From positions 5,518,001 to 5,582,000 of the forward strand of contig CM120649.1 in NCBI GenBank assembly GCA_051362555.1: DNA of 64,000 nt, in the 5' to 3' direction. This document shows, piece after piece, positions 1,820-64,000 of the stretch (positions are counted from its first letter, which is position 1; each line of letters opens with the position of its first letter). Under the pieces are notes generated by a model, which was given only the letters and a program-made list of their open reading frames with translations, was not told the DNA's origin and searched no databases. Source of the DNA: Lingula anatina (Eukaryota > Animalia > Brachiopoda). Position numbers and translations under genes: made by a program.

Positions 1820-2577
1820 ATGCTGCCAACTGTCAGTGAAAAGTCTGCCGAGCCAGGAGTGACTGTCATCACAGACGGTGGGTCCTCTGGACGTGACGGC
1901 GCTGAGGTAAATGCGTCTACTTTGAAGATGTTTAGGCTAGGAATTTTTTCTCTAACTTGGGTCATTCCACAAACAAGTGAACAGTTGAGTCGCGTCAGTC
2001 ACTTTGCTTTTGTTGTGAATATTCAGCGTTTTTTCATTTTTTTTTTTTTCACACATATTTTAGTATGGAGTTTTCATGTTTTAGCAAAATTATCATGCTG
2101 GCAATGGTGAATGTAATTAGTAATTTTTGCAAGTATAGATAAACAATAAAATTAGATTGCCTTCGATAAAGTAATTTTTTATGATAATGGATACAAAGAC
2201 GAGGAAATTCTGACTCAATCCCATTGTCAGATTGCCATTTTTTGTCTGTCGCCCAGACTTTCAATGCAAAATATAAGTTGTTGCAATTATTTGCACCGTT
2301 TTCAAAATTTTCATAAAATTATATTTTTAAATAGTTGCATCAATTTCTTTTAAAAACAGTTGGCGATGAGATAAACAATAATATTCCAACTTTATTTTTG
2401 TTCCAATTTATCTTTTAATTTGTTATATTTCAGACCAAGGCCTCGTACAAGAAGTACATAATTGTTGCTGTTGCTCTCATTGTTGTTGTTGCTGTTGCTG
2501 TCGGTGGAACGTTGGGAGCAGTTCACATCTCTAACAAGGCAGCACAAGATGTGTGGAAGGTGGGTATACGGTATCAC

Positions 2578-2622
<45 letters not shown>

Positions 2623-3957
2623 TAATAATAACAATAGAATATTTGGGAATTATGCTAATTTACATTTATGACACAAACAGATCACTTTAGAAGAAGCTTA
2701 AATTTAGCACGCGAATGAAATATCTCACTTCCAATACGCATCGATCTGGTTTTAAAGGAAAGCGGTGGAATAATATGCAAAGAAATGTGAGCAATTAAAA
2801 CTAACGATCTCATCGCCATCATCATCTAATGTGATAATTATTATTTATTCAGGAGTACCATCTCCGTTTAACCGACAAACAAGGGAAGAAAGTTGACGAA
2901 AAGGTTCAGGTTGATCTGAAGGACAACATCACCGTGTACAACGTGAACAACGAGATGTTCCACGTTGCCATGGACAACTCGAGGGTGGGTAGAGGGGGTT
3001 TTAACGTTATTGTGGAAATTGCTAATCAAAGGCGGAATATTTTACTTATACTACCTTTTACTACCTTTCAATTTTTATGTGTTTTGAATGCCAATAAAGT
3101 TAGTTTGTCGGCTAAAATATTCTGTGGGAATATCCCATTCCTTTCAGGGTCTGGTAGTATACAAGATGGAAATGAATGACAAGTTTGCTTGTTACTTGAC
3201 TCCAATGAACAAATCTGAAGAGACTGACAGCAAGGACGTGGCCAACGCTTTGGAACAACCGGTGCGATTTACTTCATATTAATTTGGACTTTGAATCTGT
3301 GTTTACATCTTCACATACACATTATTTTAATTGTGTTTAAATATATAAAGTGGCATTTAAACATGTACAGGATATGAATAAAACCGTAATCTAACCTATA
3401 CCATCATGCTTTTAGAACACCGTCGAAAATACGACATCAGATGAAGATAATGAACAAAAACAATTCGTCGCCAACACCTCCCCGATCAAGGACAAGTCCT
3501 TCCTAAGTTCCAGGATGAAGGAATTCTGCAGGAATCTGGAGGCATACTGGCTTACTCAGAAGGACGGCAACACTGTAGCCAGCACCCAAACCGCGGCAGG
3601 TACGCAAAATATAAATCTCTGAAATGTTAATCATTTCCTGATTCAATACGTACAACTATGACCATGCAGTAAATTTACTTTTTACTTTCTACGTACATGT
3701 AGAATCTACAAGACATTAGGAACATTAACATTACCCATCGTTTCGATTATATTATATTATATTATATTATATTATATTATATTTTATTATATTATATTAT
3801 AGGAGGTAAACGCCAAAAGCGAGCTTGCTACCGAATACGTTCCATATGCCCGTATAGAATAAGCACATGCATTAGGACCAGGATCGGTTTTCAGTGGAAT
3901 TGCGGTACTACGTGTATATACAGACCCTGTTGGAGGTACATATGCTCTGGTAAATAA
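1820..3957 (+). CDS. BRICHOS-domain peptide precursor, copy 1 (265 aa); exons 1820-1906, 2434-2559, 2853-2984, 3148-3261, 3416-3599, 3803-3957; predicted mature peptide ACYRIRSICPYRISTCIRTRIGFQWNCGTTCIYRPCWRYICS(GK)
   Basis: All five introns are GT-AG (phases 0,0,0,0,1) and the spliced ORF is open. TM segment YIIVAVALIVVVAVAVGGTLGAV. BRICHOS hallmarks: AMDNSRGLVVYK (conserved Asp), ACYLTPM (Cys1), PIKDKSFLSSRMKEFCRNLEAYWL (Cys2). Furin site RQKR. Exon structure is conserved in 4 other complete copies. Confidence 0.9.
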
Positions 3958-8728: not shown

Positions 8729-10228
8729 CTAGTAGCATCTCTTACAGTAACCACGAGTGACTCTATAAAAACAAACAATACGAGAACCGATCCTATAGCA
8801 AATGCGTTGAATCCTTATGCAAGGGTACCAAACGCAAGCTCGCTTTTGGCGAATACCTCCTGAAATAAAATAAAATGGAATAGAATTTAATGTCCTTTAC
8901 ATTCTATATACAGAGTTATAAGTGTATTTACCTACATCTTTACTGTTGTAGGTATTGAATCGCGTTATGGTAAACATTACAGAGACTTATACTGTGCGTA
9001 CCTGCCGGGGTTTGGGTGCTGGCGCCATCTACAGTGTTGCCGTCCTTCTGAGTGAGCCAGTATGCCTCCAGATCTCTGCAGAATTCCTGCATTCTGGGAC
9101 TTAGGAAGGACTTGTCCTTGATCGGGGAGGTGTTGGCAACGAATTGTTTTTGTTCATTATCGTCATCTGATGTCGTATTTTCGACGGTGTTCTAAAAAGC
9201 ATGATGGTATAGGTTAGGCTTAGGTTTAAATCTTATCTTGCACATGTTTAAATGCCACTTTATATATTTAAACACAATCAAAAGTAAAGTGTATGTAAAG
9301 ATGTAAACACAGATTCAAAGTTCGAATTAATATGAAGTAAATCGTACCGGTTGTTCTAAAGCGTTGGCCACGTCCTTGCTGTCAGTCTCTTCAGATTTTT
9401 TCATTGGAGTCAAGTAACAAGCAAACTTGTTATTCATTTCCATCTTGTATACTACCAGACCCTAAAAGGAAACAATCGGAGTTATTCACTTTTGTTTAAA
9501 ATAATGGGATATTCTCAAAGAATATTTGGATTTTATTATAATTATAATTATTATTTATTTTATTTTATTTTATTTTATTTTATTTATTTATTTTTTTTTT
9601 TTTTTGCTGAAAAAATTGATAAAAAGAGGTATTGATGGAATATAAACATATCCAAGAAAATTAATTCTCTGACATATGAAACACATCAAAATTCAAAGGT
9701 AGTGACACATAAATGTAAACATGTTACCGCATTGAATCCAGTAAATTCTACAGATCTTAGCTTCTAGGTACTTAACATTGTTTGCATTCTGACAAAGTAT
9801 AAGCAAAATAATCCTCCTTTGATAAACAATTTTCACAATAAAGTTAGATCGCCTCTACTTACCCTCGAGTTGTCCATGGCTACGTGGAACTTCTCGTTGT
9901 TCACGTTGTACACGGTGATGTTGTCCTTCAGATCAACCTGAACCTTTTCGTCAACTTTCTTCCCTTGCTTGTCGGTTAAACGGAGATTGTACTCCTGAAG
10001 AAATAATAATAATTACATAAGGTGATGATGGTGATAAGATCGTTAGTTTTGATTGCTCACTGCTTTGCATATAATTCCACCAATTTCCTTTAAAACCAGA
10101 TAGATACGTTTTGCAATTGAGATATTTTATGCGCGTTCGAGGGTTTTTAATAAATTTAAGCTTTTACTAAAGTGATCTGTATGTGTCATAAATTATAATA
10201 AGCAGAATTCCCAAATATTCTGTTATTA

Positions 10229-10260
<32 letters not shown>

Positions 10261-11240
10261 TGTAGTGATACAGTATACCTACCTTCAACAATCCTGACAA
10301 TTAGCAAAAAATATTTTTAATGATAATAATAATAATAATCACCCTCTTTTTAGTGATACAGTATACCTACCTTCCACACGTCTTGTGCTGTCTTGTTAGA
10401 GATGTGAACTGCTCCCAAAGTTCCACCGACAGCAACAGCAACAACAACAATGACAGCAACAGCAACAATGATGTACTTCTTGTACGACGCCTTGGTCTGA
10501 AATATAACAAATCAAAAGATGAATTGGAACAAAAGAAAACTAGGAATATGACTGTTTATCTCATCGCCAACTGTGTTGTAAAGCGTTTGAAAGAAATTGA
10601 TGCAACTATCGGTATATAAAAATATAATTTTATGAAAAATTTGAAAAACGGTGCAACTACTTATACCTTGCATTGAAAGTCTGGGCGATTCACAAAAACT
10701 GATCATTTGACAATGGGATTCTGTCAGAATTTCTTCATGTTTATATTCATTATCATAAAAAAATTACATTATCGAAGGCGGTCTAATTTTATTGTTTATC
10801 TATACTTTCGAAAATGTTTTTTAAAACCATAAGTGCTTACATTGTGATAGCATATGTAAATGCAGACCTCTCATTTGTATGTCGGTTGTGAAAACACAAG
10901 ACGTAAAATAGCGTTTTTTAATGTTACAGTCGTCTTTTTTCACTAATTGCATTCACCGCCAGCATGATAATTTTGCTAAAACATAAAAATTCCATACTAA
11001 AATATGTGTGAAAGAAAGAAAATGAAAAACGATTAATATTCACAACAAAAGCAAATTGACTGATGCGACTCAAATGTTCACTTTTTTGTGGAATGACCCT
11101 AGTTAGAGTAAAAAGTTCCTGGCCTAAACATCTTCAAAAGTGGAAACACTTACCTCGGCGCTGTCACGTCCTGAGGACCCACCGTCTGTGATGACTGTCA
11201 CGCCTGGCTCGGCAGACTTTTCACTTACAGTTGGCAGCAT
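8729..11240 (-). CDS. BRICHOS-domain peptide precursor, copy 2; exons 11240-11154, 10496-10371, 9994-9863, 9461-9348, 9191-9002, 8859-8729; mature peptide ACVWYPCIRIQRICYRIGSRIVCFYRVTRGYCKRCY
   Basis: Same exon boundaries and phases as copy 1 (87/126/132/114/190 nt), GT-AG introns, intact frame, RQKR site, six Cys in the peptide, TAG stop at 8729-8731. Confidence 0.9.
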
Positions 11241-11343
11241 CTTGAAAGAATATCAAAATTCTTCTAGCAAAGAGCAGCACTCAAGGCTTTACTTTTTCCG
11301 ACCGATCGAATTCGCCGTCTGCTGCGAGCTGGGCGCACCCTCC

Positions 11344-11351
11344 TTTTTATA
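11344..11351 (-). promoter_or_regulatory. Probable TATA box of copy 2
   Basis: TATAAAAA on the minus strand ~104 bp upstream of the ATG, inside a block conserved in all paralog promoters. Confidence 0.55.
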
Positions 11352-12056
11352 GCTGGACCACGGAGGGAGACCCGTGACAAACAGGTTTTCGATACAATGT
11401 TGTTTTTGAACAATGCCTTCCAAGTTTTTTTAAGCAGAAATAAAACGCGCTTTCATATGTTGATGTGGTGGGAAAGTTTTCGACAACCAGGATAAAAAAT
11501 GGAAAAACCCTAAGCATTTTTTAAGGATCTGATCAATGGTTGGGTGATTTTAACAAACATTCACAAGATACAAAAGGTGAAATAAATCAAATGCAACGCA
11601 CGAAAAGTGATCTTTGACAAACAAGATTTCCATACAAAAGATGGAACAATGTCTGCCAAGTTCATAGGCAGAAATAAAAAGCGTTTCCATAAATTGATGA
11701 GGTGGGAGTGTTTCCAAAAAATGTGCTGACAACGAGGAAGAAATGCTAAAAACCATAATTATTTTTTAAGTATCTGATCAACCGTTAGGTAATTTGAACA
11801 GCACGACAAAAAAGGTGTAAAATCCTTCCAAGAAAACCAGAAAAAATGTATTTGTTATTTTGCTCAAGGCGCTAATGCCAAATATATATTTAGGCAAATA
11901 ATCTGCTCTTTTACGCGTGTTAATTGGGGGGGGGGGGGTGTCTATCAAACCACTCACGTGCCAATAGGAAAATGATGCAAGTCCGTGGATATAAAGAAAA
12001 TATCAAAAGAGGTGCCATGCTGAAGTTAAAGGCCTCCCATAGTTGCAGTGACTCTC

Positions 12057-12105
<49 letters not shown>

Positions 12106-12329
12106 TTGATAGTTCCACTTTTCCAATTAAATTTTATCGATTGATTGATTGTAATTGAGCTCTGTCCTTTAATGCACATGTAAGCCCTGTACTTCCCCAA
12201 CTTATGGAGAGAGTCTTAAGTATTGAGCATTGGTCAGTTCATTTCTTACACCCTTCTAGCATTTTATTTATTTACTACATTTCAGCTTTAAACACAATTG
12301 TGCCAATAAAACTGTATTTGAAAATTTTA

Positions 12330-13200
12330 ACCATCTTGAGCTACCTGTTTTTATTTGTGACTGGATTTTAGACTTTCTTTTAAATAAAAGACAATCTGTT
12401 TAAGTCGTCTATTTATCTCAAAAACAACAGTTTTAAATACCGGTGCACCACAGGGATGCGTCTTTTCAATTTGTCTTTACTCCCTTTTTACCTATGATTG
12501 TACTATTGTAAGCGACGGAAATTTTCTTATGACATTTGCGGATGATACTACGCTTGTGGGGCTAGTTACTGATAATGACGAGAGTACACATAGAAAATCT
12601 GTTGAGTCGGTGGTAAGGTGGTGCGAGAGTAATGATCTTATTTTGAACGTAGCTAAAACCAAAGAAATGATAGTGAATTTTACAACGAATCAGAATGATA
12701 AGGCACCACTGAACACTGGAGACGTTGAAGTAAGTAGGGTAGAGGAATTTTATCTATTTGGTATACGCATGAACAGTAAAATTAATTGGAAAGATAATAC
12801 CGCGAGGAGTGTAAAGAAGGTACGGCAAAGACTATATTTTTAGGATCATTGAGAACTTTTACTGATAGCGAGCCTATTTTAGTCAATTTTATAGGTGTGT
12901 AATTGAAAGCATCCTGGCGTACAGAATTATAATATGGTATAGCGGAACAACTGGGGATGAAAAAATAAACTAACCAACGTTGTAAAAACTGCAAGCAAGG
13001 TGTATGTAATCGGGCAGGATCTGCCCATGATATTTTAACGACAGAATGAAGAAAAGAACTGTTAACACCATGGAAGATTTTTCTCATCCTGCATCATCAC
13101 TTTTTACCTTTTTACCAATTAATAGTAGACTTTAAACTTTTAAAAGGAGTAAAAGCTTTTTAAACAGCTTTTATCCAAGTGCAGTAACGCATTTTAATTT
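12330..13200 (+). mobile_element. Decayed 5'-truncated non-LTR retrotransposon (Rex1/Babar-like CR1-group LINE) reverse transcriptase fragment
   Basis: NTGAPQGCV, FADDTTLVGLVTDNDES and WCESNDLILNVAKTKEMIVNF motifs, with frameshifts and stops. Confidence 0.8.
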
Positions 13201-17894: not shown

Positions 17895-18400
17895 GCCCTC
17901 TGCACCACACTTTGCCTTAGTGACCCGTATGTCCTACCTGTCTCTCTTCCTGATGATGACAAAGTCGATGAGTTGCCAATGCTTTGAGCGTGGGTGCATT
18001 CATGATGTCCTGTTGCAGGTGAGGAGGCTAAAGATGGTGTTTGTGATCAGAAAGTTGTGCTCGGCACATGTCTGGAGAAGCATCAGTCTGTTGGTGTTAC
18101 AGTTGCCGATCCCATGCTTCCCAACCACCCCTTCCCATGTAGTGAGGTCACTGCCGACTCTGGCGTTCAAGTCGCCGAGTATAAAGAGCTTGTCTGTGTT
18201 GGAAACTGAGTTGATGGTAGCATCAATGTCCACATAGAACTTTTCTTTGATCTCATCTGGGTTGGTCATGGTGGGCGCATAGGCACTGACAATGGTGGGA
18301 AACTTCTTTCCTGTACAGAAAGGGAGTCTCAAGGTCATCAGGTGATAATTTATACCTTTTGGTGGGCCAGCGAGCTTGACAACCAGTTCTGTCCTCACTG
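17895..18400 (-). mobile_element. RTE-clade LINE fragment (apurinic endonuclease domain)
   Basis: TIVSAYAPTMTNPDEIKEKFY, LFILGDLNARVG and HNFLITNT motifs, then MHPRSKHWQLIDFVI after a stop. Confidence 0.8.
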
Positions 18401-18609
18401 TTCAGGAGCGTACACATTACATGTGGCAAAGATCAGTGGGGTACTCCTTGAATTTTATTTCCTTATTTTCTTCTTTGTATGTCGACCGCTTATTTAGGGC
18501 CCCCATAAGCTGCGGTATGCTGACTAGGGTAGTGTGGAGCATGACAGGTCAAGACGACTGGAGATGGAATGCGGATGACCAGGATGTACTATGTGCCTCA
18601 TTCTGCCCT

Positions 18610-21278: not shown

Positions 21279-23253
21279 GAATATTTGGGAATTATGCTAA
21301 TTTACATTTATGACACAAACAGATCACTTTAGAAGAAGCTTAAATTTAGCACGCGAATGAAATATCTCACTTGCAATACGTATCGATCTGGTTTTAAAGG
21401 AAAGCGGTGGAATAATATGCAAAGAAACATGAGCATTTAAAACTAACGATCTCATCGCCATAATCATCTAATGTGATTATTATTATTTCTTCAGGAGTAC
21501 CATCTCCGTTTAACAGACAAACAAGGGAAAAAAGTTGACGAAAAGGTTCAGGTTGATCTGAAGGACAACATCACCGTGTACAACGTGAACAACGAGAAGT
21601 TCCACGTTGCCATGGACAACTCGAGGGTGGGTAGAGGGGGTTTAAACGTTATTGTGTAAATTGCTAATCAAGGCGGAATATTTTACTTATACTACCTTTC
21701 ACTACCTTTCAATTTTTATGAGTTTTAAATGCCAATAAAGTTAGTTCCTTGGATATGTATATATTCCATCAATTTTGTCGGCTAAAAATCCAAATATCCT
21801 GTGGGAATATTCCATTCCTTTCAGGGTTTGGTAGTATACAAGATGGAAATGAATGACAAGTTTGCTTGTTACTTGACTCCAATGAACAAATCTGAAGAGA
21901 CCGACAGCAAGGACGTGGCCAACGCTTTGGAACAACCGGTGCGATTTACTTCATATTAATTCGGACTTTGAATCTGTGTTTACATCTAAACATACACAAT
22001 ACTTTTAATTGTGTTTAAATATATAAAGTGACATTTAAACATGTGCAAGATATGACTATAACTTAAACCTAACCTATACCGTCATGTTTTTAGAACACCG
22101 TCGAAAATACGACATCAGATGAAGATAATGAACAAAAGCAATTCGTTGTCAACACCTCCCCGATCAAGGACAAGTCCTTCCTTAGTCCCAGGATGAAGGA
22201 ATTCTGCAGGAATCTGGAGGCATATTGGCTTACTCAGAAGAACGGCAACAATGTAGCCAGCACCCATACCCCGGCAGGTACGCAAAATATAAATCTCTGA
22301 AATGTTAGTCATTTCCTGATTCAATACTTACAACTATGACCATGCAGTAAATTCACTTTTTACTTTCTACATACATGTAGAATCTACAAGACATTAGGAA
22401 CATCACCATTACCCATCGTTTCGATTATATTATATTATATTATTTTTCAGGAAGTAAACGCCAGAAGCGAGCTTGCTCCTGGATACCTTACAGGTGTCCG
22501 TGTAGAATAGGCACATGCATAAGGTTCAGGATCGGTTCTCGGTGGCATTGCCGTTATAGGTACATATACATTGTAAGACCCTGTAGGAGGTACATATGCT
22601 CTGGTAAATAAACGCTGCTGCTAAATATAGTTTAACACAAATATTTTTGCAAAGTGTGATTAGTCAACTTAAAAAACTTCCCGCGACCATGTCTATCCCA
22701 GAATATTTCAGAACCATAAATTAAACAGGGTTAATCCACTGTTACATGGGTATTCATGAAATAGGAGCCACATGGTACCAGTACAGAGTGACGTTTCAGA
22801 AAAATCCCCTCCAGAGTTCTTAATCAGCCAATCCCAGGTTTTTTTTCAATAATACCCATGTGTGTATTTTTTGGTGTGTTAACTGTCATAACAACAAATC
22901 ATTATCCCAGCTAATAGTAAGTTATGCATCATTTAGTTATTGTTCTATTAGCAATGACTCTATTACTATTTGTTTGTATTCAAATAGATTAAGCAATAAT
23001 TGACTTTTTGGTAAAATGTTTTTTTAAATAAATTCCACGTGTGCATTTTTATATGTTAACTGTAATGACGGCATCATTAAAATGATTATCCTAGGTTATT
23101 GTTAGTTGATTATCCTAGGTTATTGTTCTTTTAGTTGTGCTTCCTTTCCGTTGTTATTTGCTTCGAATTTGAAAGATGAATTAAAGACACTACCTGACCT
23201 TTTGCTAAGTTGTCACTGTTTTTCTTAAATGCTTTTATTTTTTTACAAAAAAA

Positions 23254-24412: not shown

Positions 24413-25285
24413 GACGACACTGGTTCTGGGCATCAGAATCGTTTTTGAAAAATTCAATAAAATTAAAAATTACACTTCAAACTACAAAGGGAGGCCCAGG
24501 GGCCCCTTCCCCCTCTTCAGCTAACCTTTATTCCCCCACCCCCACCCCCACTTAAACTTGCCTCACCCTCTGCCCACCCTTGTTTCTCACCGCAAAAACG
24601 ATTCTGGCTTCTCAGAATCGTTTTTGAAAAACGACACTGGTTTCTGGGCATCAGAATCGTTTTTGAAAAATTCAATAAAATTAAAATTATACATCAAACT
24701 ACGAAGGGAGGCCCCGGGGGCCCCTTTCCCCTTTCCCCTCTTCAACCTCACCCTTATTCCCCCACCCCCACCCCCACTTAAACTCCATTCCCGGCTTCCA
24801 CTGTGCAGGCTGCCTGTGACTGGTAGCGGCGGTCAACTCGGCCTCCCAGCGGGGCGAGGAAAGACCGTAACTCTGTAAACACCCTGTCAAGCTTCTGCGA
24901 TGAGGGTTGCCCGTACCTGTAGGAAATAATCGGCGACCGTCTCGGTCTCAGCGCACGTCGAGGAGAGACCGTAAAACCCTGCCCGGCTTTCGTGGTGAGG
25001 GTTACCTAATCGTGGTACACGCTAACCGCTGGTTGCCTCTCCCTCTGCCCACCCCTGTTTCTCTCCGCAAAAACGATTCTGGCTTCTCAGAATCGTTTTT
25101 GAAAAACGACACTAGTTTCTGGTTGCCAGAATCGTTTTTCGAAAAACGACACTAGTTTCTGGATGCCAGAATCGTTTTTGAAAAACGAAACTAGTTTCTG
25201 GTTGCCAGGTTTGTTTATGAAAAACGACACTAGTTTCTGGTGGCCAGGTTCGTTTTTGAAAAACGAAACTAGAAACTAGACACTA
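24413..25285. repeat. Inserted repeat element with an internal duplication and a ~34-bp minisatellite (TTTTGAAAAACGACACTAGTTTCTGGNTGCCAGAATCG-like)
   Basis: Begins where homology with the copy-1 flank (~5770) breaks. 24415-24557 is repeated at ~24631-24784. About 6 tandem units lie at 25070-25280. Confidence 0.65.
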
Positions 25286-25513
25286 ACTTCAGCGCTCTCT
25301 GAAAGAGTATAGAATAGAGTAGAGTAGAGTAGAGTAGAGTAGAGTAGAGTAGAGTATAGTAGAGTAGAGGATGCCAAAATCGAAATAACGGCCAGCATTT
25401 CATGTCCTGTAACTTCTATATACAGAGCAATAAGTGTATTTACCTACATTGTTACTGTTGTAGGTATTGCATCGGGTTATGGTTAACATTTCAGAGATTT
25501 GTATTGTGCGTAC

Positions 25514-25943
25514 CTGCCGGGATTCGTACGGTGGCGCCATCTACAGTGTTGCCGTCATTCTGAGTGAGCCAGTATTCCTCCAGATCCCTGCAGAATTCCT
25601 GCATCCTGGGACTTAGGAAGGATTTGTCTTTGATCTGGGAAGTATTTACAACGAAGCTTTCTTGGTCATCATCATCACCATCTTCATCATCTGTCGTGTT
25701 CTCGACGGCGTTCTAAAAGAAAAACTGCACAGGTTATGTGAAGATTTTTTTCATGTCTTGCAATTTTTTTCATATGTTTATATCTATATTTTCAAACACA
25801 ATCAACAGCAACATTTATGAAAAAAGGTAAACAAAAAGACTGAATAAATAATGACGTTTGTTGTACAGGCTGTTCCATAGCGCTGACCACGTCGAGGCGA
25901 GTAACAAGCAACCTTGCATTTCCATCTTGTATACTACTAGACT
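25514..25943 (-). pseudogene. Truncated BRICHOS precursor pseudogene (exons 4 and 5 only)
   Basis: The exon-5 homolog at 25712-25514 is intact (NAVENTTDDEDG...FCRDLEEYWLTQ). The exon-4 homolog at 25943-25867 is 77 nt versus 114 nt (frameshifting deletions). No recognisable exons 1-3 or peptide exon nearby. Confidence 0.8.
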
Positions 25944-30675: not shown

Positions 30676-31550
30676 TTATTTACCGTAGCATCTGTACCTA
30701 TAACAGTATCTATAATAGTATACATAACGGCAATAGTTACGAAAACCGATCCTAATGCATACGCGTCTTATATAACGGCATATACGCCACCGGTAGCAAT
30801 AGGCTCGCTTCTGGCGTTCACCTCCTGAATAATATAATATAATATAATATAATATAATATAATATAATATAATATAATATAATATAATCGAAGGGTAATG
30901 TTCCTAATGTCTTGTGGATTCTACATGTACATAGAAAGTTAAAAGTAAATTTACTGAATGGTAATTGTTGTAAGTTTTGCATCGGGTAATGGTTAGCATT
31001 TCAGAGATTTATATTTTGCGTACCTGCCGGGGTTTGGGTGCTGGCGCCATCTACAGTGTTGCCGTCCTTCTGAGTAAGCCAGTATGCCTCCAGATCCTTG
31101 CAGAATTCCTGCATTCTGGGACTTAGGAAGGACTTGTCCTTGATCGGAGAGGTGTTGGCAACGAATTGTTTTTGTTCATTATCTTCATCTGATGTCGTAT
31201 TTTCGACGGTATTCTAAAACATGATGGTATAGTTTAGGTTTAAGTTATAGTCATATCTTGCACATGTTTAAATGCCACTTTATATATTTAAACACAATTA
31301 AAAGTACTGTGTATGTAAAGATTTAAACACAGATTCAAAGTCTGAATTAATATGAAGTAAATCGCACCGGTTGTTCCAAAGCATTGGCCACGTCCTTGCT
31401 GTCGGTCTCTTCAGATTTGTTCATTGGAGTTAAGTAACAAGCAAACTTGTTGTTCATTTCCATCTTGTATACTACCAGACCCTAAAAAGAAACAATCGGA
31501 GCTTTTCACTCTTGTTTTAAATAATGGGATATTCTCAAAGAATATTTGGA

Positions 31551-31593
<43 letters not shown>

Positions 31594-33256
31594 TTATTTT
31601 TATTTATTTATTTCTTTTTTTGCTGAAAAAATTGATAAAAAACAGGTATTAATCAATGGAATATAGACATAGCCAAGAGAATTAATTCACTGACATATGA
31701 AACACATCAAAATTGAAAGGTAGTGACACATAAATGTAAACATGTTACCGCGTTGAATCCCGTAAATTCTACAGATCTCAGCTTAGAGGTACTTAACATT
31801 GTTTGCATTCTGACAAAGTATAAGCAAAATAATCCTCCTTTGATAAACAATTTTCACAATAAAGTTAGATCGCCTCTACTTACCCTCGAGTTGTCCATGG
31901 CTACGTGGAACTTCTCGTTGTTCACGTTGTACACGGTGATGTTGTCCTTCAGATCAACCTGAACCTTTTCGTCAACTTTCTTCCCTTGCTTGTCGGTTAA
32001 ACGGAGATGGTACTCCTGAAGAAATAATAATAATCACATAAGGTGATGATGGTGATAAGATCGTTAGTTTTGATTGCTCACTGCTTTGCATATAATTCCA
32101 CCAATTTCCTTTAAAACCAGATAGATACGTTTTGCAATTGAGATATTTTATGCGCGTTCGAGGGTTTTTAATAAATTTAAGCTTTTACTAAAGTGATCTG
32201 TATGTGTCATAAATTATAATAAGCAGAATTCCCAAATATTCTGTTATTATTGTTATTATTATTATTATTATTATTTGTAGTGATACAGTATACCTACCTT
32301 CAACACATCCTGACAATTAGCAAAAAATATTTTTAATGATAATAATAATAATAATCACCCTCTTTTTAGTGATACAGTATACCTACCTTCCACACGTCTT
32401 GTGCTGTCTTGTTAGAGATGTGAACTGCTCCCAAAGTTCCACCGACAGCAACAGCAACAACAACAATGACAGCAACAGCAACAATGATGTACTTCTTGTA
32501 CGACGCCTTGGTCTGAAATATAACAAATCAAAAGATGAATTGGAACAAAAGAAAACTAGGAATATGACTGTTTATCTCATCGCCAACTGTGTTGTAAAGC
32601 GTTTGAAAGAAATTGATGCAACTATCGGTATATAAAAATATAATTTTATGAAAAATTTGAAAAACGGTGCAACTACTTATACCTTGCATTGAAAGTCTGG
32701 GCGATTCACAAAAACTGATCATTTGACAATGGGACTCTGTCAGAATTTCTTCATGTTTATATTCATTATCATAAAAAATGACATTATCGAAGGCGGTCTA
32801 ATTTTATTGTTTATCTATACTTTCGAAAATGTTTTTTAAAATCATAAGTGCTTACATTGTGATAGCATATGTAAATGCAGACCTCTCATTTGTATGTCGG
32901 TTGTGAAAACACAAGACGTAAAATAGCGTTTTTTAATGTTACAGTCGTCTTTTTTCACTAATTGCATTCACCGCCAGCATGATAATTTTGCTAAAACATA
33001 AAAATTCCATACTAAAATATGTGTGAAAGAAAGAAAATGAAAAACGATTAATATTCACAACAAAAGCAAATTGACTGATGCGACTCAAATGTTCACTTTT
33101 TTTGTGGAAAGACCCTAGTTAGAGTAAAAAGTTCCTGGATTAAACATCTTCAAAAGTGGAAACACTTACCTCGGCGCTGTCACGTCCTGAGGACCCACCG
33201 TCTGTGATGACTGTCACGCCTGGCTCGGCAGACTTTTCACTTACAGTTGGCAGCAT
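30676..33256 (-). CDS. BRICHOS-domain peptide precursor, copy 4; exons 33256-33170, 32512-32387, 32015-31884, 31481-31368, 31213-31024, 30824-30676; mature peptide AYCYRWRICRYIRRVCIRIGFRNYCRYVYYYRYCYRYRCY(GK)
   Basis: GT-AG introns, conserved exon sizes and phases, intact frame, RQKR site, six Cys, GK-stop end. Confidence 0.9.
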
Positions 33257-33359
33257 CTTGAAAGAATATCAAAATTCTTCTAGCAAAGAGCAGCACTCAG
33301 GGCTTTACTTTTTCCGACCGATCGATTTCGCCGTCTGCTGCGAGCTGGGCGCACCCTCC

Positions 33360-33367
33360 TTTTTATA
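33360..33367 (-). promoter_or_regulatory. Probable TATA box of copy 4
   Basis: TATAAAAA at the same position relative to the ATG as in copy 2. Confidence 0.55.
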
Positions 33368-34073
33368 GCTGGACCACGGAGGGAGACCCGTGACAAACAG
33401 GTTTTCGATACAATGTTGTTTTTGAACAATGCCTTCCAAGTTTTTTAAGCAGAAATAAAACGCGCTTTCATATGTTGATGTGGTGGGAAAGTTTTCGACA
33501 ACCAGAATAAAAAATGGAAAAACCCTAAGCATTTTTTTAAGGATCTGATCAATGGTTGGGTGATTTTAACAAACATTCACACGATACAAAAGGTGAAATA
33601 AATCAAATGCAAAGCACGAAAAGTGATCTTTGACAAACAAGATTTCCATGCAAAAGATTGAACAATGTCTGCCAAGTTCATAGGCAGAAATAAAAAGCGT
33701 TTCCATAAATTGATGAGGTGGGAGTGTTTCCAAAAAAATGTGCTGACAACGAGGAAGAAATGCTAAAAACCATAAGTATTTTTTAAGTATCTGATCAATC
33801 GTTAGGTAATTTGAACAGCACGACAAAAAAGGTGTAAAATCCTTCCAAGAAAACCAGAAAAAAATGTATTTGTTATTTTGCTCAAGGCGCTAATGCCAAA
33901 TATATATATATTTAAGCAAATAATGTGCTCTTTTACGCGTGTTAATTGGGGGGGGTGTCTATCAAACCACTCACGTGCCAATAGGAAAATGATGCAAGCC
34001 CGTGGATATAAAAAAAATATCAAAAGAGGTGCCATGCTGAAGTTAAAGGCCACCCATAGTTGCAGTGACTCTC

Positions 34074-34106
<33 letters not shown>

Positions 34107-34329
34107 TTGATAGTTCCACTTTTCCAATTAAATTTTATCGATTGATAATGTAATTGAGCTCTGTCCTTTGATGCACATGTAAGTCCTGTACTTCCCCAAC
34201 TTATGGAGTCTTAAGAATTGAGCATTGGTCAGTTCATTTGTTACACCCTTCTAGCATTTTATTTATTTACTACATTTCAGCTTTTAACACAATTGTGCCA
34301 ATAAAACTGCATTTGAAAATTTTATCCAT

Positions 34330-35075
34330 CTTGAGCTACCTGTTTTTATTTGTGACTGGATTTTAGATAAAAGACAATCTGTTAAAGTCGTCTATTTATC
34401 TAAAAGACAACAGTTTTAAATACCGGATGATACTACGCTAATGGGGCTAGTTACTGATAATGACAACAGTACACATAGAGAATTTGTTGAGTCGGTGGAA
34501 AGGTGGTGCGAGAGTAATTATCTTATTTTGAACGTAGCTAAAACCAAACAAATGATAGTGAATTTTAGAAAGGGACCATTCAACACTGGAGACGTTGAAG
34601 TACGGTAGAGGAATGTAAACTACTTGGTACAGTGTATACGCATGAATAGTAAAATTAATTGGAAAGATAATACCGCGAGGAGTGTAAAGAAGGTACGGCA
34701 AAGACTATATTTTTAGGATCATTGAGAACTTTTAATAGCGTGCCTATTTTAGTCAATTTTATAGGTGTGTAATTGAAAGCATCCTGGTGTACGGAATTAT
34801 AATATGGTATAGCGGAACAACTGGGGAGGAAATAAATAAACTAAACAACGTTGTAAAAACTGCAAGCAAGATAATCGGACAGGATCTACCCAAGGTGGAT
34901 GATATTTTAACGACAGAATGGAGAAAAGAACTGTTAACACCATGGAAGACTCTTCTCATCCTGCATCATCACTTTTTGCATCTTACAAAGCAATAGCAGA
35001 CTTTTAACTTTTAAAGGCAGTAATTAAACGATTTTTAAACTACTTTCATCCAAGTGCAGTGACGCATTTTAATTT
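34330..35075 (+). mobile_element. Duplicated copy of the Rex1/Babar-like LINE RT fragment, with an internal deletion
   Basis: Colinear with 12330-13200. It lacks ~100 bp between the NTG and DDTT motifs. Confidence 0.75.
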
Positions 35076-42959: not shown

Positions 42960-43640
42960 AATCAGCCAGTGGCTCCCGGGCTGTGACGGATCATGTCACT
43001 GGTGACTAGGGTTCCATTGTCGAGAAAAGCAAAGAGCTGGTGATTTTCCTCTGGTGTAGTGCTAGTAGGCGGTGCTGGGATCAAATTGAAATTGGAGTTT
43101 GAAGAGCCACTTACAATTTGCTGGTAGGCATGACTCAGTTCAGGTTTTGAGTAGTACTGACCTCCAGATAAACTGGCATACAAGTCCTCAATACTGGGAA
43201 TTGGATATTGTTTCACTCTGGATGCTGTGTTAATGGTCAGCTTATATCACCACAAATGCGAAATTACTCCATTGGGTTTCAAGACGGGAACAATGGGTGC
43301 TGCTTGTTGTACTGGACGTAAAAACTCCATCAGCCACAAGGCGTTCAAGCTCAGCCTCCACCTTGCCTGTCATAGCCAGTGGGACTGGACGTGGCCTACA
43401 GTATACAGGAACAGCGTTTTCATCAACATATAGTTTGGCATCCATGTTATTTAACTTCCCAAGTCCATGACTGAATAGTTGTGGGAATTTTGCAGGGTAG
43501 TCCTCTGAAGATACCTTGAATATAGGTGGCCAGTGCGGGGCAATAGCTTGTATCCAGTCACACCCCACCAGATTGGGACCGGAACCTTGTACCACATAGC
43601 AGGGCAGGCTGTATGTATTCCCTTCATAGCTGACAGGTAC
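42960..43640 (-). mobile_element. Decayed Gypsy (K02A2.6-like) pol fragment: protease end and RT start
   Basis: GSGPNLVGCDWI, PVYCRPRPVPLAM..KVEAELERLV and QYPIPSIEDLYASLSGGQYYSK..LSHAYQQI motifs, with frameshifts. Confidence 0.8.
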
Positions 43641-45710: not shown

Positions 45711-48700
45711 TTATTTACCCCTGTAGCATCTGACACACCAACCATAATAGTATCTGTAATAGCAATACCGATAATAACCGAAATAGTAGCAGTAGCGTCT
45801 TAGCCTCAAGCAACGGCGCCAGTAGCAAGCTCGCTTCTGGCGATTACCTCCTGAAATATAATATAATATAATATAATATAATATAATATAATATAATATA
45901 ATATAATATAATAAGCGAAAATCGAGACAAAACCTCACATTCAATGCCCTTTTCACACTATATACAAAGTAATCAATGAATTTACTGCTCTGGCCCTGTT
46001 GTACATGTACGTATTGCACCGTGTAATGGTTAACATTTAATAGATTAATCTTGTGCGTACCTGTCGGTGCTTGGGTGCTGACGCCATCTGTAGTACTTTC
46101 GTCTTTCTGGGTAAGCCAGTATGCCTCCAAATCCCTGCAGAATTCCTGCATTCTGGGACTGAGGAAGGACTTGTCCTTGATCGGAGAAGTGTTGGCAACG
46201 AATCGCTTTTGTTCAATATCTTCATCTGTCGTATTTTCAACGGTGTTCTAATAATATGATGGTATAGGTTAGGTAACGGTTTTATTCAAATCTTGCACCA
46301 TTTTCATCTTAAAATGTCACTTTTTATCTTTAAACGTAATTAAGGGTAACGTATACGAAAAGATGTAAACTCCGATTCAAAGTCCGAATAGAAATCAGGT
46401 ACATCATACCGGTTGTTCCAAAGCGCTGGCCACGCCCTTGCTGTCAGTCTCTTCAGATTTGTTCATTGGAGTCAAGTAACAAGCAAACTTGTTGTTCATT
46501 TCCATCTTGTATACTACAAGACTCTGAAAAGATAAAAAACCGGAAATGCATTGTTGCTTAAATGATAGAATATTTCAACTGAATACTTTTATCGACCAAA
46601 TTGATTTAAAAAACAGGTTTATAAACATAATAGAAAAATATCCAAGAAAAAACTTTATTTGCACCTAAAACACGAAAATTAAAAGAACTTGACACTTCAC
46701 TTCTTATACACTGCTCTACTGATGCGTCTCAGCGCATTTGCAATTGGCCCTGATACAATCTGGAGGTTATAGCCCAGCACGCCGTACGGAGCGCTGAACG
46801 CTAGCAAACGGAAATATCTATCTCTGCCAGACCAAAAACTTTATCCCTGCTTCAACCCCTAGGTGCTGTGTGCCAAACACAACAGGATTGTTCATGATAA
46901 TAAAAATTGATAATCCTTATAATTAAGTTCTAGCACATTTTTACAAAAGTTTATGATCAAGCAAATACATAAGCAGCGTAATGAAACACATGTATGTATG
47001 CTATTGATATTGATGCTTGAATTGTTACATTTAGCAGGTAATTATATGGTCATTATTTAGCCATCTCGATAGATGTTTTATTGTGCCATACTGTGTTATT
47101 TTGTTTTGCCCATGTGTTTAGCCTTGCGATAAACTTATTATAGAATAATACACCGGTGAAGCTAAACACATGGCTCTACTTGTAACACTGCTAAACATGT
47201 CTAGCATTTTCTTCTGTGAGAAGCTTGAAAGGCTATACGTGTTGAGCTTTTATGCATATTTCTAACCGCGTTTAGGTGATAAATGTGTGTTATATGTGTT
47301 TAAAAGCTAAACACTGATTTTACTGTGTAGAAAAGTTTCCACACAGAATTCAGTAATTTTTATGCATATCAGCTTATGGGTAATAAACATTATTTACATT
47401 CTGGCAGAGTAAAATAAGCTTGCTTTAATAAAGTTTAGACGTTTTTGCAATAACCGTCTCTACTCACCCTTGAGTTGTCCATGGCAACGTGGAACTTCTC
47501 GTTGTTCACGTTGTACACGGTGATGTTGTCCTTCAGGTCAACCTGAACCTTTTCGTCAACTTTGTTCCCTTGCTTGTCAGTTAAACGGAGATGGTACTCC
47601 TGAAGAAATAATAATAATCATATAAGGTGATGATGGTGATGGTGATGAGATCATTGGTTTTGATTCTTTGCATATAATTCAACCGACTTCCCTTAAAACC
47701 AGACTATCGATACGTTTTCCAACAGAATATCGATATGTTTTCCAACTAGGTCTTTTTAAATAGATTTAAGCTTCTACTAAAGTGATATGTTTGTGTCATA
47801 AATGACAATTAGCAAAAATGTTTTTAATGATGATGATTATAAGAATAATAATTATCACCCTCTTTTTAGTGATACCGTATACCCACCTTCCACACATCTT
47901 GTGCTGCCTTGTTAGAGATGTGAACTGCTCCCAGCGTTCCACCGACAGCAACAGCAACAACAACAATGACAGCAACAGCAACAATGATGTACTTCTTGTA
48001 CGACGCCTTGGTCTGAAATACAACAAATTAAAAGATAAATTGGAACAAAAGGATTTGGAATATAATATAATTCGCATCACCAACTGTGTTGTAAAGTGTT
48101 TTGGCGAAATTATATTCACCATTTCCAGCATGGTAATTTCGTCAAAATATGAAAATTCCATATTAGATTTGTGTGAAATCTAACTTAAAATAATTTACAG
48201 TAACTTAGCTCTTGCCATGCATGCAATTTATTATTGAATAAAGATGCCGATTCCTTCATAGAGAAACTCGAGACCCAGTGCTCTGAAAATAAGCAAATGC
48301 CGGACGGATGACTGTCTTTTCAGAAATGAAAATGTCTAAATATCTGCTTAAGCCAAACTGTTTGCTTTACAGAATAATTTGAAGCGCTTTAAAAACTTAA
48401 CTCGCTAAAATAAAAAGAGGAATGAACCCCCCTCGCACATGTCGGTGAATAAACATTGTCACAATGGATTTTAGATAAAAACATGGTCTTTTTGACAAAT
48501 TTATTTTACAACATTGCAAGGCTAAAAAGTGGGCATTTACTACCCGAAGAAAAAAAAGAAAAAGAAAAACGATAAATATTGAAAACAAAAGCAACGCAAA
48601 TGCATCACTGACGCAACTGAAATGTTCACTTTTTGTGGAATGAATCAAGTTAGAATAAAGAATCCCTGGCCTTAACTAAGTTGAGAGACTTACCTCGGCG

Positions 48701-48780
48701 CTGTCACGTCGAGAGGACCCGCCATCTGTGATGACTGTCACGCCGGATTCGGCAGACTTTTCACTGATTGTTGGCAACAT
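45711..48780 (-). CDS. BRICHOS-domain peptide precursor, copy 5; exons 48780-48694, 48012-47887, 47599-47468, 46523-46410, 46247-46061, 45850-45711; mature peptide ACYWRRCLRLRRYCYYFGYYRYCYYRYYYGWCVRCYR(GK)
   Basis: GT-AG introns, conserved phases, intact frame, RQKR site, six Cys, GK-stop end. Confidence 0.9.
46709..47327. mobile_element. CACTA/EnSpm-related insertion in intron 3 of copy 5
   Basis: Starts CACTG and ends GCTAAACACTGATTTTACTGTG, flanked by TA. Its right ~220 bp resembles the right end of the 13812-15236 element. It accounts for most of the enlarged intron. Confidence 0.5.
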
Positions 48781-48904
48781 CTTGAAAATATAACAAAATT
48801 CTTCTAGCAGAGAGCAGCATTCAAGGCCTTACTTTTTCCGACCGATCGAGTTCGCCGTCTGCTGCGAGCTGGACGTACTCTCCTTTTTATGGCTGCAGCC
48901 ATCA

Positions 48905-49990
48905 CGAAAAGTGATCTTTGATAAACAAGTTTTCGATACAAAAGATAGAACAATGTCTTCCAATTTTTTAAGCAGAAATAAAACGCGATCAAGGGTATGT
49001 TTTCGACAACCAGGAAGAAATGGTAAAAATCTTAAGTATTTTTCAAAGTAAGATCAATAGTTGGGCAATTTACCAAACACCCATACGAAACAAAAGCTGT
49101 AGTATACCAAATAAAAGGCACGGGAGTGATCTCTGACAAACAAGTTTTCGATGGAACAATGTCTTCCAAGTTTTTAAGCAGAAATAAAACGAGCTTTCAT
49201 ATGTTGATGAGGCTGGAATGTTTTCAAAATATCCCGCGCTGCTATTCAGAACATCAACCAGGAAGAAATGGCAAAATCCATAAGTGATTTCTAAGTATCT
49301 GATGAATAGTTAGGTAATATGAACAAACATCTAAACGACACAAAAGGTGAAATAAACCAATGTCAGCGCTCGAAAAGTGATCTTTGATAAACAAGTTTTC
49401 GATACAAAAGATGCATTAATGTCTTCCAAGTTTTTAAGCAGAACTGAAACGAGATCAAGGGTATATTTTCGACAACCAGGAAGAAACGGTAAAAACCTTA
49501 AGTGCTTTTAAAGTAAGATCAATAGTTGGGCAATTTTACCAAACACCCATACAAAACAAAAGCTGTAGTATACCAAATAAAAGGCACGGGATTGATCTCT
49601 GACAAACAAGTTTTCGATGGAACAATGTCTTCCAAGTTTTTAAGCAGAAATAAAACGCGCTTTCATATGTTGATGAGGTTGGAATGTTTTCTAAATATCC
49701 CGCGCTGCTATTCAGAACATCAACCAGGAAGAAATGGCAAAATCAATAAGTGTTTTCTAAGTATCTGATCAATAGTTAGGTAATATGAACAAACATCTAC
49801 ACGACACAAAAGGTGAAATAAACTAAATTCAGCGCACGTAAGGTGATCTTTGACAAACAAGTTTTCGATACAAAAGGTAGATTAATGTCTTCCAAGTTCA
49901 TAAGCAGAAATAAAACGTGAGTTTTAATGTTGATGAAGTGGGAATGTTTTTGAAAAAAAAAACGCCCTGCTTTTAAGAACATGACAGCGA
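48905..49990. repeat. ~470-bp tandem duplication of the upstream/promoter module of copy 5
   Basis: GTGATCTTTGAYAAACAAGTTTTCGATACAAAAG recurs at ~48911, ~49377 and ~49843. The first two units are near-identical along their length. Confidence 0.8.
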
Positions 49991-50778: not shown

Positions 50779-51890
50779 ACCGTAAACACGATAAGTGGAA
50801 AACGGTTTTACATTTTGACTTGAAACTTACAGAACTGATGAATATTCATAATATTCAGGTCAAGTTCGAAAATCAGCATGATTGGGCCATTTTTAGGGAA
50901 GTTATGCTGTTTTTTCACTTTTTTCAGCATATATGCAACACCGTAAACACGATAAGTGGAAAACCGTTTTACCTTTTGGTTTGAAACTTACAGAACTGAT
51001 GAATTTGTATAATACACAGGTCAAGTTCGAAAATCAGCATGATTGGGTCATTTTTAGGGAAGTTATGCTGTTTTTTCACTTTTTTCAGCATATATGCAAC
51101 ACCGTAAACACGATAAGTGGATAACCGTTTTACCTTTTGGTTTGAAACTTACAGAACTGATGAATATTCATAATATTCAGGTCAAGTTCGAAAATCAGCA
51201 TGATCGGGCCATTTTTAGGGAAGTTATGCTGTTTTTTCACTTTTTTCAGCATATATGCAACACCGTAAACAGGATAAGTGGAAAACCGTTTTACCTTTTG
51301 GTTTGAAACTTACAGAACTGATGAATTTGTATAATACACAGGTCAAGTTCGAAAATCAGCATGATCGGGTCATTTTTAGGGAAGTTATGCTGTTTTTTCA
51401 CTTTTTTCAGCATATATGCAACACCGTAAACACGATAAGTGGAAAACCGTTTTACCTTTTGGTTTGAAACTTACAGAACTGATGAATTTGTATAATACAC
51501 AGGTCAAGTTCGAAAATCAGCATGATCGGGTCATTTTTAGGGAAGTTTTGCTTTTTTTTTCACTTTTTTCAGCATATATGCAACACCGTAAACACGATAA
51601 GTGGAAAACCGTTTTACCTTTTGGTTTGAAACTTACAGAACTGATGAATTTGTATAATACACAGGTCAAGTTCGAAAATCAGCATGATCGGGTCATTTTT
51701 AGGGAAGTTTTGCTTTTTTTTCACTTTTTTCAGCATATATGCAACACTGTAAACATGATAAGTGGAAAACCGTTTTACCTTTTGGTTTGAAACTTACAGA
51801 ACTGATGAATATTTCTAATACGCAGGTCAAGTTCGAAAATCAGCATGATTGGGTCATTTTTAGGGAAGTTATGCTTTTTTTTCACATTTT
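50779..51890. repeat. Satellite array, ~161-bp unit, ~7 copies
   Basis: ACCGTAAACACGATAAGTGGAAAA recurs about every 161 bp with near-identical units. Confidence 0.92.
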
Positions 51891-52289
51891 CTCTGATTCA
51901 ATTCTTAGGCATGTTAATAGTCTCATTATTGAACTAATAAGATATGTAAAAGTGTTTTTTTTTTGACATTTCCTGCATCTTTACAACATTGTTAGTTGAT
52001 TATGTAAAAATGATGGTAAACTTGTTATCGTGTATTGTGTAATGAAGTGTCAAAAATGGAAATAAACACATATCATCGCAGTTTGTCAGATTCAATCATC
52101 CACTATGTTCAGAATCTCAGAATGGAGGAAATTGGACATTTAATACTGTTCTATTGATATTTTTCCCATCTCATCAATTTTCTTAGTTGGTCATAAAAAA
52201 ATGGCAGTAAACTGTTAATTTTGTTTTATGTTAAAAAAGTGTTAAAATGGAAATAAACCCATTTCAGAAAAGTGCTGTCTTGTTTACAT

Positions 52290-63613: not shown

Positions 63614-64000
63614 TTATTTACCCAAGCATACGTAACACAAAGCATAATAGTAATAATAATAGCAATACTGAGAAACACCGATATAGGGGCAGTAGTATCC
63701 AAGCCTCAAGCAACTGTCCAAGTAGCAAGCTCGCTTCTGGCGATTACCTCCTGAAATATAATATAATATAATATAATATAATATAATATAATATAATATA
63801 ATATAATATAATATAATATAATATAATAAGCAAAATTCGAGACAATGGCTCACATTTAATGCCCTGCACATTTTATATACAAAGTAATCAATGAGTTTAC
63901 TGCACTGGCACTGTTGTACGTTTTGCACCGAGTAACAATTAACATTTAATAGATTAATCCTGTGCGCACCTGCCGGTGCTTGGGTTTTGGCGCTCTCTAC
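63614..64000 (-). CDS. BRICHOS-domain peptide precursor, copy 6 (partial: end of exon 5 at 64000-63970, exon 6 at 63750-63614); mature peptide ACYLDSCLRLGYYCPYIGVSQYCYYYYYYALCYVCL(GK)
   Basis: Exon-5 donor (CCGGCAG/GT), an intron 5 homologous to copy 5, RQKR site, six Cys with the same spacing as copies 2 and 5, GK-stop end. The 5' part is outside the window. Confidence 0.8.
   Translation of the reverse strand, partial: VESAKTQAPAGAHRINLLNVNCYSVQNVQQCQCSKLIDYFVYKMCRALNVSHCLEFCLLYYIILYYIILYYIILYYIILYYISGGNRQKRACYLDSCLRLGYYCPYIGVSQYCYYYYYYALCYVCLGK

Follow-up and report, generated by a model that had tools for sequence, protein, structure and literature searches.

Results

A tandem cluster of BRICHOS precursor genes in Lingula anatina

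The 64,000-nucleotide stretch of the brachiopod Lingula anatina genome analyzed here (the window) contains a cluster of related blocks, which emerged when the window was compared with itself. Gene models place in this cluster five complete six-exon genes for BRICHOS-domain precursors, a sixth gene truncated where the window ends, and a seventh that is broken. All five introns of each of the five complete copies have GT..AG boundaries. The exon at 22451-22611, whose divergence is the subject of this report, belongs to copy 3, which corresponds to L. anatina LOC106176269; after splicing, the copy 3 product equals XP_013414038 (P0016). The features of the cluster are as follows.

1820-3957, plus strand: copy 1, sister of copy 3; exon 6 at 3803-3957, mature peptide of 44 aa at 3823-3954, net charge +8, seven Cys
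8729-11240, minus strand: copy 2; exon 6 at 8859-8729, peptide of 36 aa, net charge +8, six Cys, its C-terminal part equal to P0001
20504-20590, 21100-21225, 21495-21626, 21825-21938 and 22094-22277, plus strand: exons 1 to 5 of copy 3
22422-22450, plus strand: (ATATT)n tract directly 5′ of the copy 3 exon 6 acceptor
22451-22611, plus strand: exon 6 of copy 3, with the linker end, RQKR (22459-22470), mature peptide of 46 aa (22471-22608) and stop codon (22609-22611)
25280-25943, minus strand: broken seventh copy; part of a damaged exon 4 (25942-25894), exon 5 (25712-25514) and intron 5
30676-33256, minus strand: copy 4, a mosaic gene; exon 6 at 30824-30676, peptide of 42 aa, net charge +12, six Cys
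45711-48780, minus strand: copy 5; exon 6 at 45850-45711, Tyr/Arg-rich peptide of 39 aa, net charge +10, six Cys
63614-64000, minus strand: copy 6, sister of copy 5, cut by the window end; exon 5 end, intron 5 and exon 6 (63750-63614)

Exon 6 of copy 3 follows an AG acceptor and encodes a peptide with a net charge of +11, seven Cys and a GK end. An (ATATT)n tract of 3 to 14 units precedes exon 6 in five of the six copies that have this exon, and is missing from copy 2. The broken seventh copy, in which exons 1-3 and exon 6 were not found, faces copy 3 and carries a (TAGAG)12 tract at the place of the (ATATT)n of the other copies. Copy 5 equals P0003 across the regions compared, and the copy 6 peptide (38 aa, net charge +1, six Cys) is identical to the mature part of P0018. 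The RefSeq protein P0005 equals copy 1 for its first 214 aa and then has a different end in which copy 1 exon 6 is missing; the copy 1 peptide is absent from the RefSeq models retrieved. A profile search with exon 5 matched 13 proteins, every one from L. anatina. Analyses at the DNA level cover the copies in the window, while further paralogues were compared as proteins.

Other repeats are also present in the window. Tandem arrays lie at 48903-49917, 50779-51890 and 52286-53316, with units of 466, 161 and 337 bp respectively, the first being an expansion, in front of copy 5, of a block that is repeated upstream of the BRICHOS genes. Three intergenic open frames at 12388-12843 (plus strand), 18000-18401 (minus strand) and 43242-43640 (minus strand) have, judged by eye, the look of retroelement remnants (reverse transcriptase-like, endonuclease-like and protease-like).

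Architecture of the precursors

Exons 1-5 of copy 3 encode a short polar N-terminal tail of 37 aa, a hydrophobic anchor of about 23 uncharged residues (exon 2) and a BRICHOS domain at aa 106-198 (Pfam PF04089, 46.8 bits against a cut-off of 25, E = 3.4e-12). We infer a type II membrane topology for the precursor. SP_C-Propep is matched weakly, at 17.2 bits, and falls short of the 25-bit cut-off. In an alignment of 19 rows C130 and C191 are invariant and D112 is nearly so; judging by its position, we take D112 to be the conserved Asp of the BRICHOS family. Structure comparison with VIA ranks the proSP-C BRICHOS domain (2yad) at the top, albeit weakly (Z 3.5, rmsd 7.5, 60 aligned). A Foldseek search with the full copy 3 model (pLDDT 44.9) gave no match at E ≤ 0.001, with proSP-C BRICHOS at ranks 2-6.

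An RQKR motif precedes the peptide in all six window copies that have exon 6, and is also found in the 18 Lingula rows of the alignment. The peptide itself is encoded by the last of six exons, a layout shared with preproalvinellacin with respect to intron number, which is what was compared. Some paralogues carry the RefSeq label ‘leukocyte cell-derived chemotaxin 1-like’. The 293-aa protein P0029 has a matching layout with a longer Tyr/Arg/Cys tail, so this type of precursor occurs beyond Lingula as well.

A family of cationic, Cys-rich peptides with a predicted hairpin fold

The six window copies and 18 RefSeq proteins yield 17 distinct peptides, or about 13 types after likely alleles are merged. 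Across the family the peptides are 35-47 aa long, with net charges of +1 to +15 and 2, 6, 7 or 10 Cys (mostly six); those encoded in the window are 36-46 aa long and rich in Cys. Fourteen of the 17 carry a net charge of +8 to +15 together with many aromatic residues, and the weakly charged members include copy 6 (+1) and P0008 (+3). None of the six peptide frames in the window contains a frameshift or premature stop.

AlphaFold2 predicts that the copy 3 peptide forms a hairpin of two 21-residue strands with the turn at an RIGS motif. The full copy 3 model, in which a two-strand hairpin is also drawn, has low overall confidence, while a shorter model of P0014 places strands at 112-132 and 135-155 with pLDDT values of 79-88 across most of the peptide. 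The six shared Cys of copy 3 roughly fit a nested pairing (position sums of 45, 47 and 43) that leaves the seventh over, and the 2-Cys paralogue retains the first and last Cys. The seventh Cys is not shared between the sister copies, being at position 31 in copy 1 and at position 11 in copy 3. Each substitutes for a Tyr that is retained in copy 4, and the two lie on opposite strands. In a sequence search of the PDB the peptide matched no chain, and the family profile gave one chance match.

Several members depart from this common form. The 10-Cys members P0009, P0010 and P0012 have additional Cys clustered at the turn, and the 2-Cys members P0013, P0022 and P0023 carry one identical peptide on three differing pro regions. 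Copy 6 (63614-63750, minus strand) has lost nearly all the Arg of its sister copy 5 (net charge +1 versus +10) with only two synonymous differences, and is a candidate for a change of function. The copy 4 peptide (30676-30824, minus strand) differs from that of RefSeq P0017 by substitutions and indels, with 1 of 189 residues different in the pro region, possibly reflecting allelic variation within the mature exon.

Resemblance to annelid antimicrobial peptide precursors

The polychaete BRICHOS antimicrobial peptides (AMPs) arenicin, alvinellacin, capitellacin, abarenicin, nicomicin and HfBRI are described, in the available portions of PMC6780910, PMC10745061 and PMC6265681, as having the same succession of hydrophobic N-terminus, BRICHOS domain, dibasic site and cationic, Cys-containing C-terminal peptide. 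According to the same portions, five HfBRI precursors are transmembrane proteins, as the Lingula precursors probably are, and the polychaete hairpins described there are 20-25 aa long with one or two disulfides. The Lingula genes differ in their brachiopod host and in peptides that are 35-47 aa long and mostly have six Cys (2 to 10). By analogy with the polychaete precursors, the mature Lingula peptide is likely an AMP.

A similar layout also occurs in chondromodulin/tenomodulin and Bri2, which are type II proteins with a BRICHOS domain and a furin-released, beta-rich C-terminal peptide. These are conserved genes with conserved C-termini, whereas the Lingula family is a lineage-specific expansion with divergent cationic C-termini. 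It is conceivable, if unlikely, that the Lingula peptides are clients of BRICHOS whose job after release is other than killing microbes (at the surface, in the shell or chaeta matrix, in antifouling or in chondromodulin-like signaling) and diversify for some other reason. Consistent with such a role, the closest Atlas clusters contain chondromodulin/tenomodulin-type BRICHOS proteins (scores of 0.93 and 0.92), copy 6 is nearly neutral and P0008 carries only +3. Moreover, Bri23 is described in the available text of PMC6780910 as having a like architecture without antimicrobial activity, and mussel CRP-I in that of PMC10138031 as having a like evolutionary pattern with its function unresolved. 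However, the strongly cationic, aromatic-rich composition of 14 of the 17 peptides is that of membrane-active hairpin AMPs, and annelid precursors of like layout, including transmembrane ones, give active AMPs in the account available from PMC10745061. An antimicrobial role is the reading that we prefer.

Divergence between copies 1 and 3 peaks in the mature peptide

The original prediction held that copies 1 and 3 have nearly the same chaperone portion and very different peptides, and recounting gave the same values. Exons 1-5 are identical at 204 of 214 aa. The mature peptides of 44 and 46 aa share 28 identities in 46 columns, with 16 replacements and one 2-codon indel, and the six core Cys, the RIG turn and the GK end are common to both. 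Two other statements needed qualification. About two codons had been said to differ purely synonymously, and exactly two do, but inclusion of mixed codons raises the count to 4.5 synonymous differences over 32 sites, and the earlier figure therefore understates dS. Likewise, the introns and flanks had been called near-identical; their divergence is low, yet reaches 5.5% overall (105/1908), 9.7% in intron 4 and 7.4% in the 3′ flank.

The densest 132 columns of the alignment hold 27 differences, a concentration reached in none of 5,000 permutations of the 156 differences over 2,561 columns. Replacement divergence in the mature region is 18.5% (18.5/99.75 sites), compared with 6.9% (38/551) in intron 5 plus the 3′ flank (P = 7e-4), so the excess in exon 6 was borne out by the comparison that had been proposed as a check. 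The mature peptide is thus changing about three times faster than the surrounding DNA. The excess is also evident against all non-coding sequence (105/1908; P = 2e-5) and is marginal against the synonymous sites of exons 1-5 (10.5%; P = 0.07). Neutral simulations on non-coding rates lead to an expectation of 5.3-7.2 aa differences where 16 are observed (P ≤ 0.003), and leaving out codons 28-33 gives P = 0.002-0.024. On synonymous rates the corresponding values are P = 0.06-0.10, or 0.17-0.24 without these codons. Divergence at exonic synonymous sites is twice that of introns, and introns may therefore understate the neutral rate.

An estimate of dN/dS by exon, also suggested with the prediction, gave a divided answer. 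The pro region (exons 1-5) has an omega of 0.22 (P < 0.001), indicating that purifying selection also maintains the chaperone. In the mature region dN/dS is 1.38 (NG86) or 1.47-1.66 (GY94, P = 0.40-0.50 against 1), and for this pair alone omega was never significantly above 1 across all fits (P = 0.16-0.51).

Conotoxins have a conserved pre-pro region and a hypervariable, positively selected, Cys-rich mature peptide, and hypermutation has been proposed for them. Unlike what such hypermutation would produce, copies 1 and 3 show neither a transversion bias nor a raised multi-base rate. Their mature regions differ by 11 transitions and 12 transversions (54 and 51 in non-coding DNA), with 2 of the 23 changes being CpG-type, and 4 adjacent differences are observed where 4.0 are expected if changes are independent. 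The transition/transversion and CpG counts rule out CpG- or transversion-biased hypermutation. Of 13 gene segments, 11 group copies 1 and 3 together, exon 6 among them, and the peptide tree does so with 99/98 support. Eight exon 6 changes are private to each of the two lineages, and this symmetry, together with the retained sister grouping, rules out that one of the copies acquired its exon 6 from a foreign source.

Recombination between copies

Exchange between copies occurs in this cluster. From promoter to exon 3, copies 2 and 4 show about 99% identity; between intron 3 and exon 5 they differ by 3-9%, and from intron 5 onward they are distant (0-5 differences per 200 columns from promoter to intron 3, then 6-20, then more than 60). 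The near-identical block from promoter to exon 3 lies at 8900-12450 in copy 2 and at 30930-34430 in copy 4, while the modules of intron 5, exon 6 and 3′ sequence differ. Copy 4 is a mosaic whose 5′ half resembles copy 2 and whose intron 5 to 3′ flank resembles copies 1 and 3. As far as intron 3, informative sites support (1,3)(2,4); they contradict one another in the stretch from exon 4 through exon 5, and they support (1,3,4)(2,5) from intron 5. This switch in grouping along the gene indicates that one chaperone half sits on different peptide modules. Because exons 1-5 and flanks have been exchanged between some copies, the constancy of the chaperone is in part homogenization.

Homogenization of exons 1-5 and flanks with neutral divergence of exon 6 had been named as a finding that would count against selection, and part of this is present, exchange being real in copies 2 and 4, but the peak between copies 1 and 3 is not explained by it. 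A version of this idea that we consider improbable is that copies 1 and 3 have a greater age than their flanks imply. Conversion would keep resetting all but exon 6, where converted versions would be selected against, so that the difference is maintained rather than accelerated. This model, which is described in the available part of PMC3924837, is itself a form of selection. It draws on the exchange seen in copies 2 and 4 and the switch at intron 5, on a mature dS for copies 1 and 3 of 0.15, above the 0.07-0.10 of the flanks, and on residues 4, 6 and 23, which copy 3 shares with copy 2 against copy 1. However, the synonymous excess over the flanks is not significant (P = 0.08-0.19), and in the sister pair of copies 5 and 6 dS is 0.07, below the 0.16-0.23 of the flanks. 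In addition, when scaled by the distance to copy 4, the divergence of copies 1 and 3 is 0.45-0.50 in exon 6 versus about 0.55-0.65 in the flanks; being no larger in exon 6, it does not make this exon look older than its surroundings. Accelerated replacement in exon 6 is the reading that we carry forward.

Selection across the six copies

The second sister pair, copies 5 and 6, gives a stronger signal than copies 1 and 3, with differences at 2 of 31 synonymous and 25 of 83 replacement sites (Fisher P = 0.005, ML P = 0.04-0.07). Across all six copies, the site models favor a class of codons under positive selection (M2a against M1a, likelihood ratio statistic 14.2, P = 8e-4; M8 against M8a, P = 5e-4). 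This result is stable to the choice of tree and codon frequencies and to gap removal, and the class with an omega of about 3-5 comprises, in most fits, roughly two thirds to three quarters of the codons. With a single omega the estimate is 1.63 and not significant (P = 0.12). The codon models are our own implementations applied to six short sequences and checked with 35 and 25 null simulations, and recombination between copies violates their assumption of one tree. When the six peptides were aligned by themselves with MAFFT, Cys columns were misplaced; this alignment was set aside, although its statistic was similar (15.9).

The strength of this signal depends on how multi-base changes are treated. 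When these are fixed at 3-12% of events P is 0.001-0.004, and at 18-21% it is 0.005-0.027. When they are fitted freely the fit gains about 17-21 log units (M1a) and the site-model signal is gone (P = 0.31-0.57). The free fit needs about 37-47% multi-base events in the two fits checked, which is about five to six times the share in non-coding DNA of the locus, where the multi-base excess is about 7 of 98 events (some 7%; 13 adjacent pairs observed, 5.8 expected). Null simulations equaled or exceeded the observed statistic in 0 of 35 cases at about 10% multi-base events and in 2 of 25 at the freely fitted rate. Subsets in which the alignment is safe (copies 2, 5 and 6; the pair 1 and 3) gave P = 0.004-0.03, although with the higher multi-base rate the support falls to P = 0.05-0.15. 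Among the six closest pairs in the family, 46 of 1045 pro and 7 of 248 mature residues differ (MK-like P = 3e-5), a comparison that is not counted as evidence because the pairs were picked for similar peptides and it is therefore circular.

These same figures are what relaxed constraint combined with complex mutation would draw on, a reading that we regard as still less probable than conversion. Here the Cys and the turn would be kept and the low-complexity Arg/Tyr strands would drift neutrally through slippage and multi-base events, while the flanks would look slow owing to constraint on introns and 3′ UTR. The pair omega that is indistinguishable from 1, the marginal excess over synonymous sites, the better fit of the free multi-hit models, the many codon indels in the family and codons 28-33 of copy 1, which could be one complex event, all accommodate it. 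Against it are the independence of adjacent differences in copies 1 and 3, the excess of the fitted multi-hit share over the non-coding share, the few synonymous changes and directional Arg loss in copies 5 and 6, and the intact frames of all six peptides. The expectation that the mature exon has evolved under positive selection is thus supported by the six-copy site models and the excess over non-coding flanks, but not by copies 1 and 3 alone, where the test is not significant. Positive selection on the mature exon is, at the level of the family, likely from the sequences compared here.

Haplotypes and expression

Single contigs from two of four DNA runs (X1 and X7) match 22414-22615 with no differences, ruling out an assembly artefact in exon 6, with the caveat that X1 may be the source of the assembly. 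Run X6 carries four other letters within the 826 bases of 22275-23100, at positions not given, and X4 has no piece spanning exon 6 among the matches listed. P0014, encoded on another scaffold, has a peptide identical to that of copy 3 and differs at 5 of 111 residues of the pro region. The peptide is thus unchanged in P0014 and in two DNA runs, and no ongoing allelic race is seen in these few haplotypes; likewise, among the contig matches listed there is no exon 6 polymorphism to count.

Two of four RNA runs contain transcripts of the BRICHOS-peptide family, spliced onto exon 6. Reads number 0 in X12, 3 in X15, 2,624 in X18 and 427 in X20, and those of X18 and X20 derive nearly all from paralogues that are 92-99% alike. 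In X18, one form in which an exon 5 end is joined to the beginning of exon 6 accounts for 719 reads. Depth over the mature core of copy 3 is 0-4 in the four runs, under read matching that would drop alleles more than 8% different. In the X18 data on 22200-22800, the exon 5 end and peptide start of the dominant transcript match none of the six window copies and resemble P0006.

Discussion

We favor, with reasonable but not full confidence, the interpretation that exon 6 encodes the C-terminal peptide of a tandem family of BRICHOS precursors, predicted to form a long, disulfide-tied beta-hairpin, and that this peptide is likely cut at RQKR, amidated, antimicrobial and diversified under selection. 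The original prediction of a constant chaperone with a variable effector in an arms race describes a pattern that is present in the cluster. Its arms race and AMP role are readings of that pattern, and the copy 3 peptide is invariant in the few haplotypes at hand.

By analogy with annelid BRICHOS-AMPs, as presented in the available text of PMC6780910, PMC10745061, PMC6265681 and PMC13001179, the precursor would be anchored in the secretory pathway, where the BRICHOS domain would hold an aggregation-prone hairpin until its release by a furin-type convertase cleaving after RQKR. The cationic, aromatic hairpin would then attack microbial membranes. Trimming of the terminal GK would leave a C-terminal amide, in keeping with an established processing rule. 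Tandem duplication would supply copies, after which selection may fix replacements at non-Cys strand positions, altering strand residues, length and charge, and each new peptide type would afterwards be held. Purifying selection and recombination between copies would together maintain one shared chaperone.

A more elaborate scheme, which we put forward as speculation, is a combinatorial antimicrobial arsenal outside annelids. Recombination would pass one chaperone cassette around some 13 effector exons for long hairpins, possibly with exchange at the ATATT tract, and copies 1 and 3 would dimerize through their unpaired Cys into homo- or heterodimers that widen the repertoire. That the extra Cys of these copies form covalent dimers is a guess from their positions.

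That a mature exon evolves fast while its propeptide is conserved is a textbook selection pattern and so, by itself, would not surprise a specialist. Mussel CRP-I, as far as the available text of PMC10138031 describes it, combines a conserved pre-pro region with a hypervariable, positively selected, Cys-rich mature peptide, as in Lingula, and the analogy with cathelicidins is drawn in the accessible part of PMC10745061. The prodomains and folds of CRP-I, cathelicidins and conotoxins are unrelated to those of the Lingula BRICHOS precursors. A survey of Lingula immune genes was reportedly made by Gerdol et al. in 2018 (Dev Comp Immunol) and may mention BRICHOS-peptide genes. Nothing relevant on BRICHOS in Lingula or brachiopods was found in the literature covered, chiefly main texts of openly accessible papers, and the 2019 review PMC6780910, in its available portion, gives BRICHOS-AMPs as known from polychaetes only. 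What is new here is the host phylum, the length of the hairpins and a reversal of the alvinellacin pattern.

The preproalvinellacin family of Alvinella, as described in the available text of PMC5431198, resembles the Lingula family in being a tandem multigene family with five introns, a peptide in the last exon and recombination between paralogues. In that account the alvinellacin peptide is monomorphic across paralogues and the BRICHOS domain diversifies. The Lingula family is the reverse, with a peptide that diversifies between paralogues and a BRICHOS domain under purifying selection (omega 0.22). Alvinellacin is the one BRICHOS-AMP gene family that we found with a selection study, and Lingula shows the opposite outcome, which raises the testable question of whether the half of the precursor that diversifies depends on a role in symbiont control as opposed to pathogen defence. 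With about 13 peptide types joined to a nearly constant chaperone, the family also allows a test of how a single BRICHOS domain can fold beta-hairpin clients that differ so much, and the multi-Cys hairpins of 35-47 aa are candidate antibiotic scaffolds.
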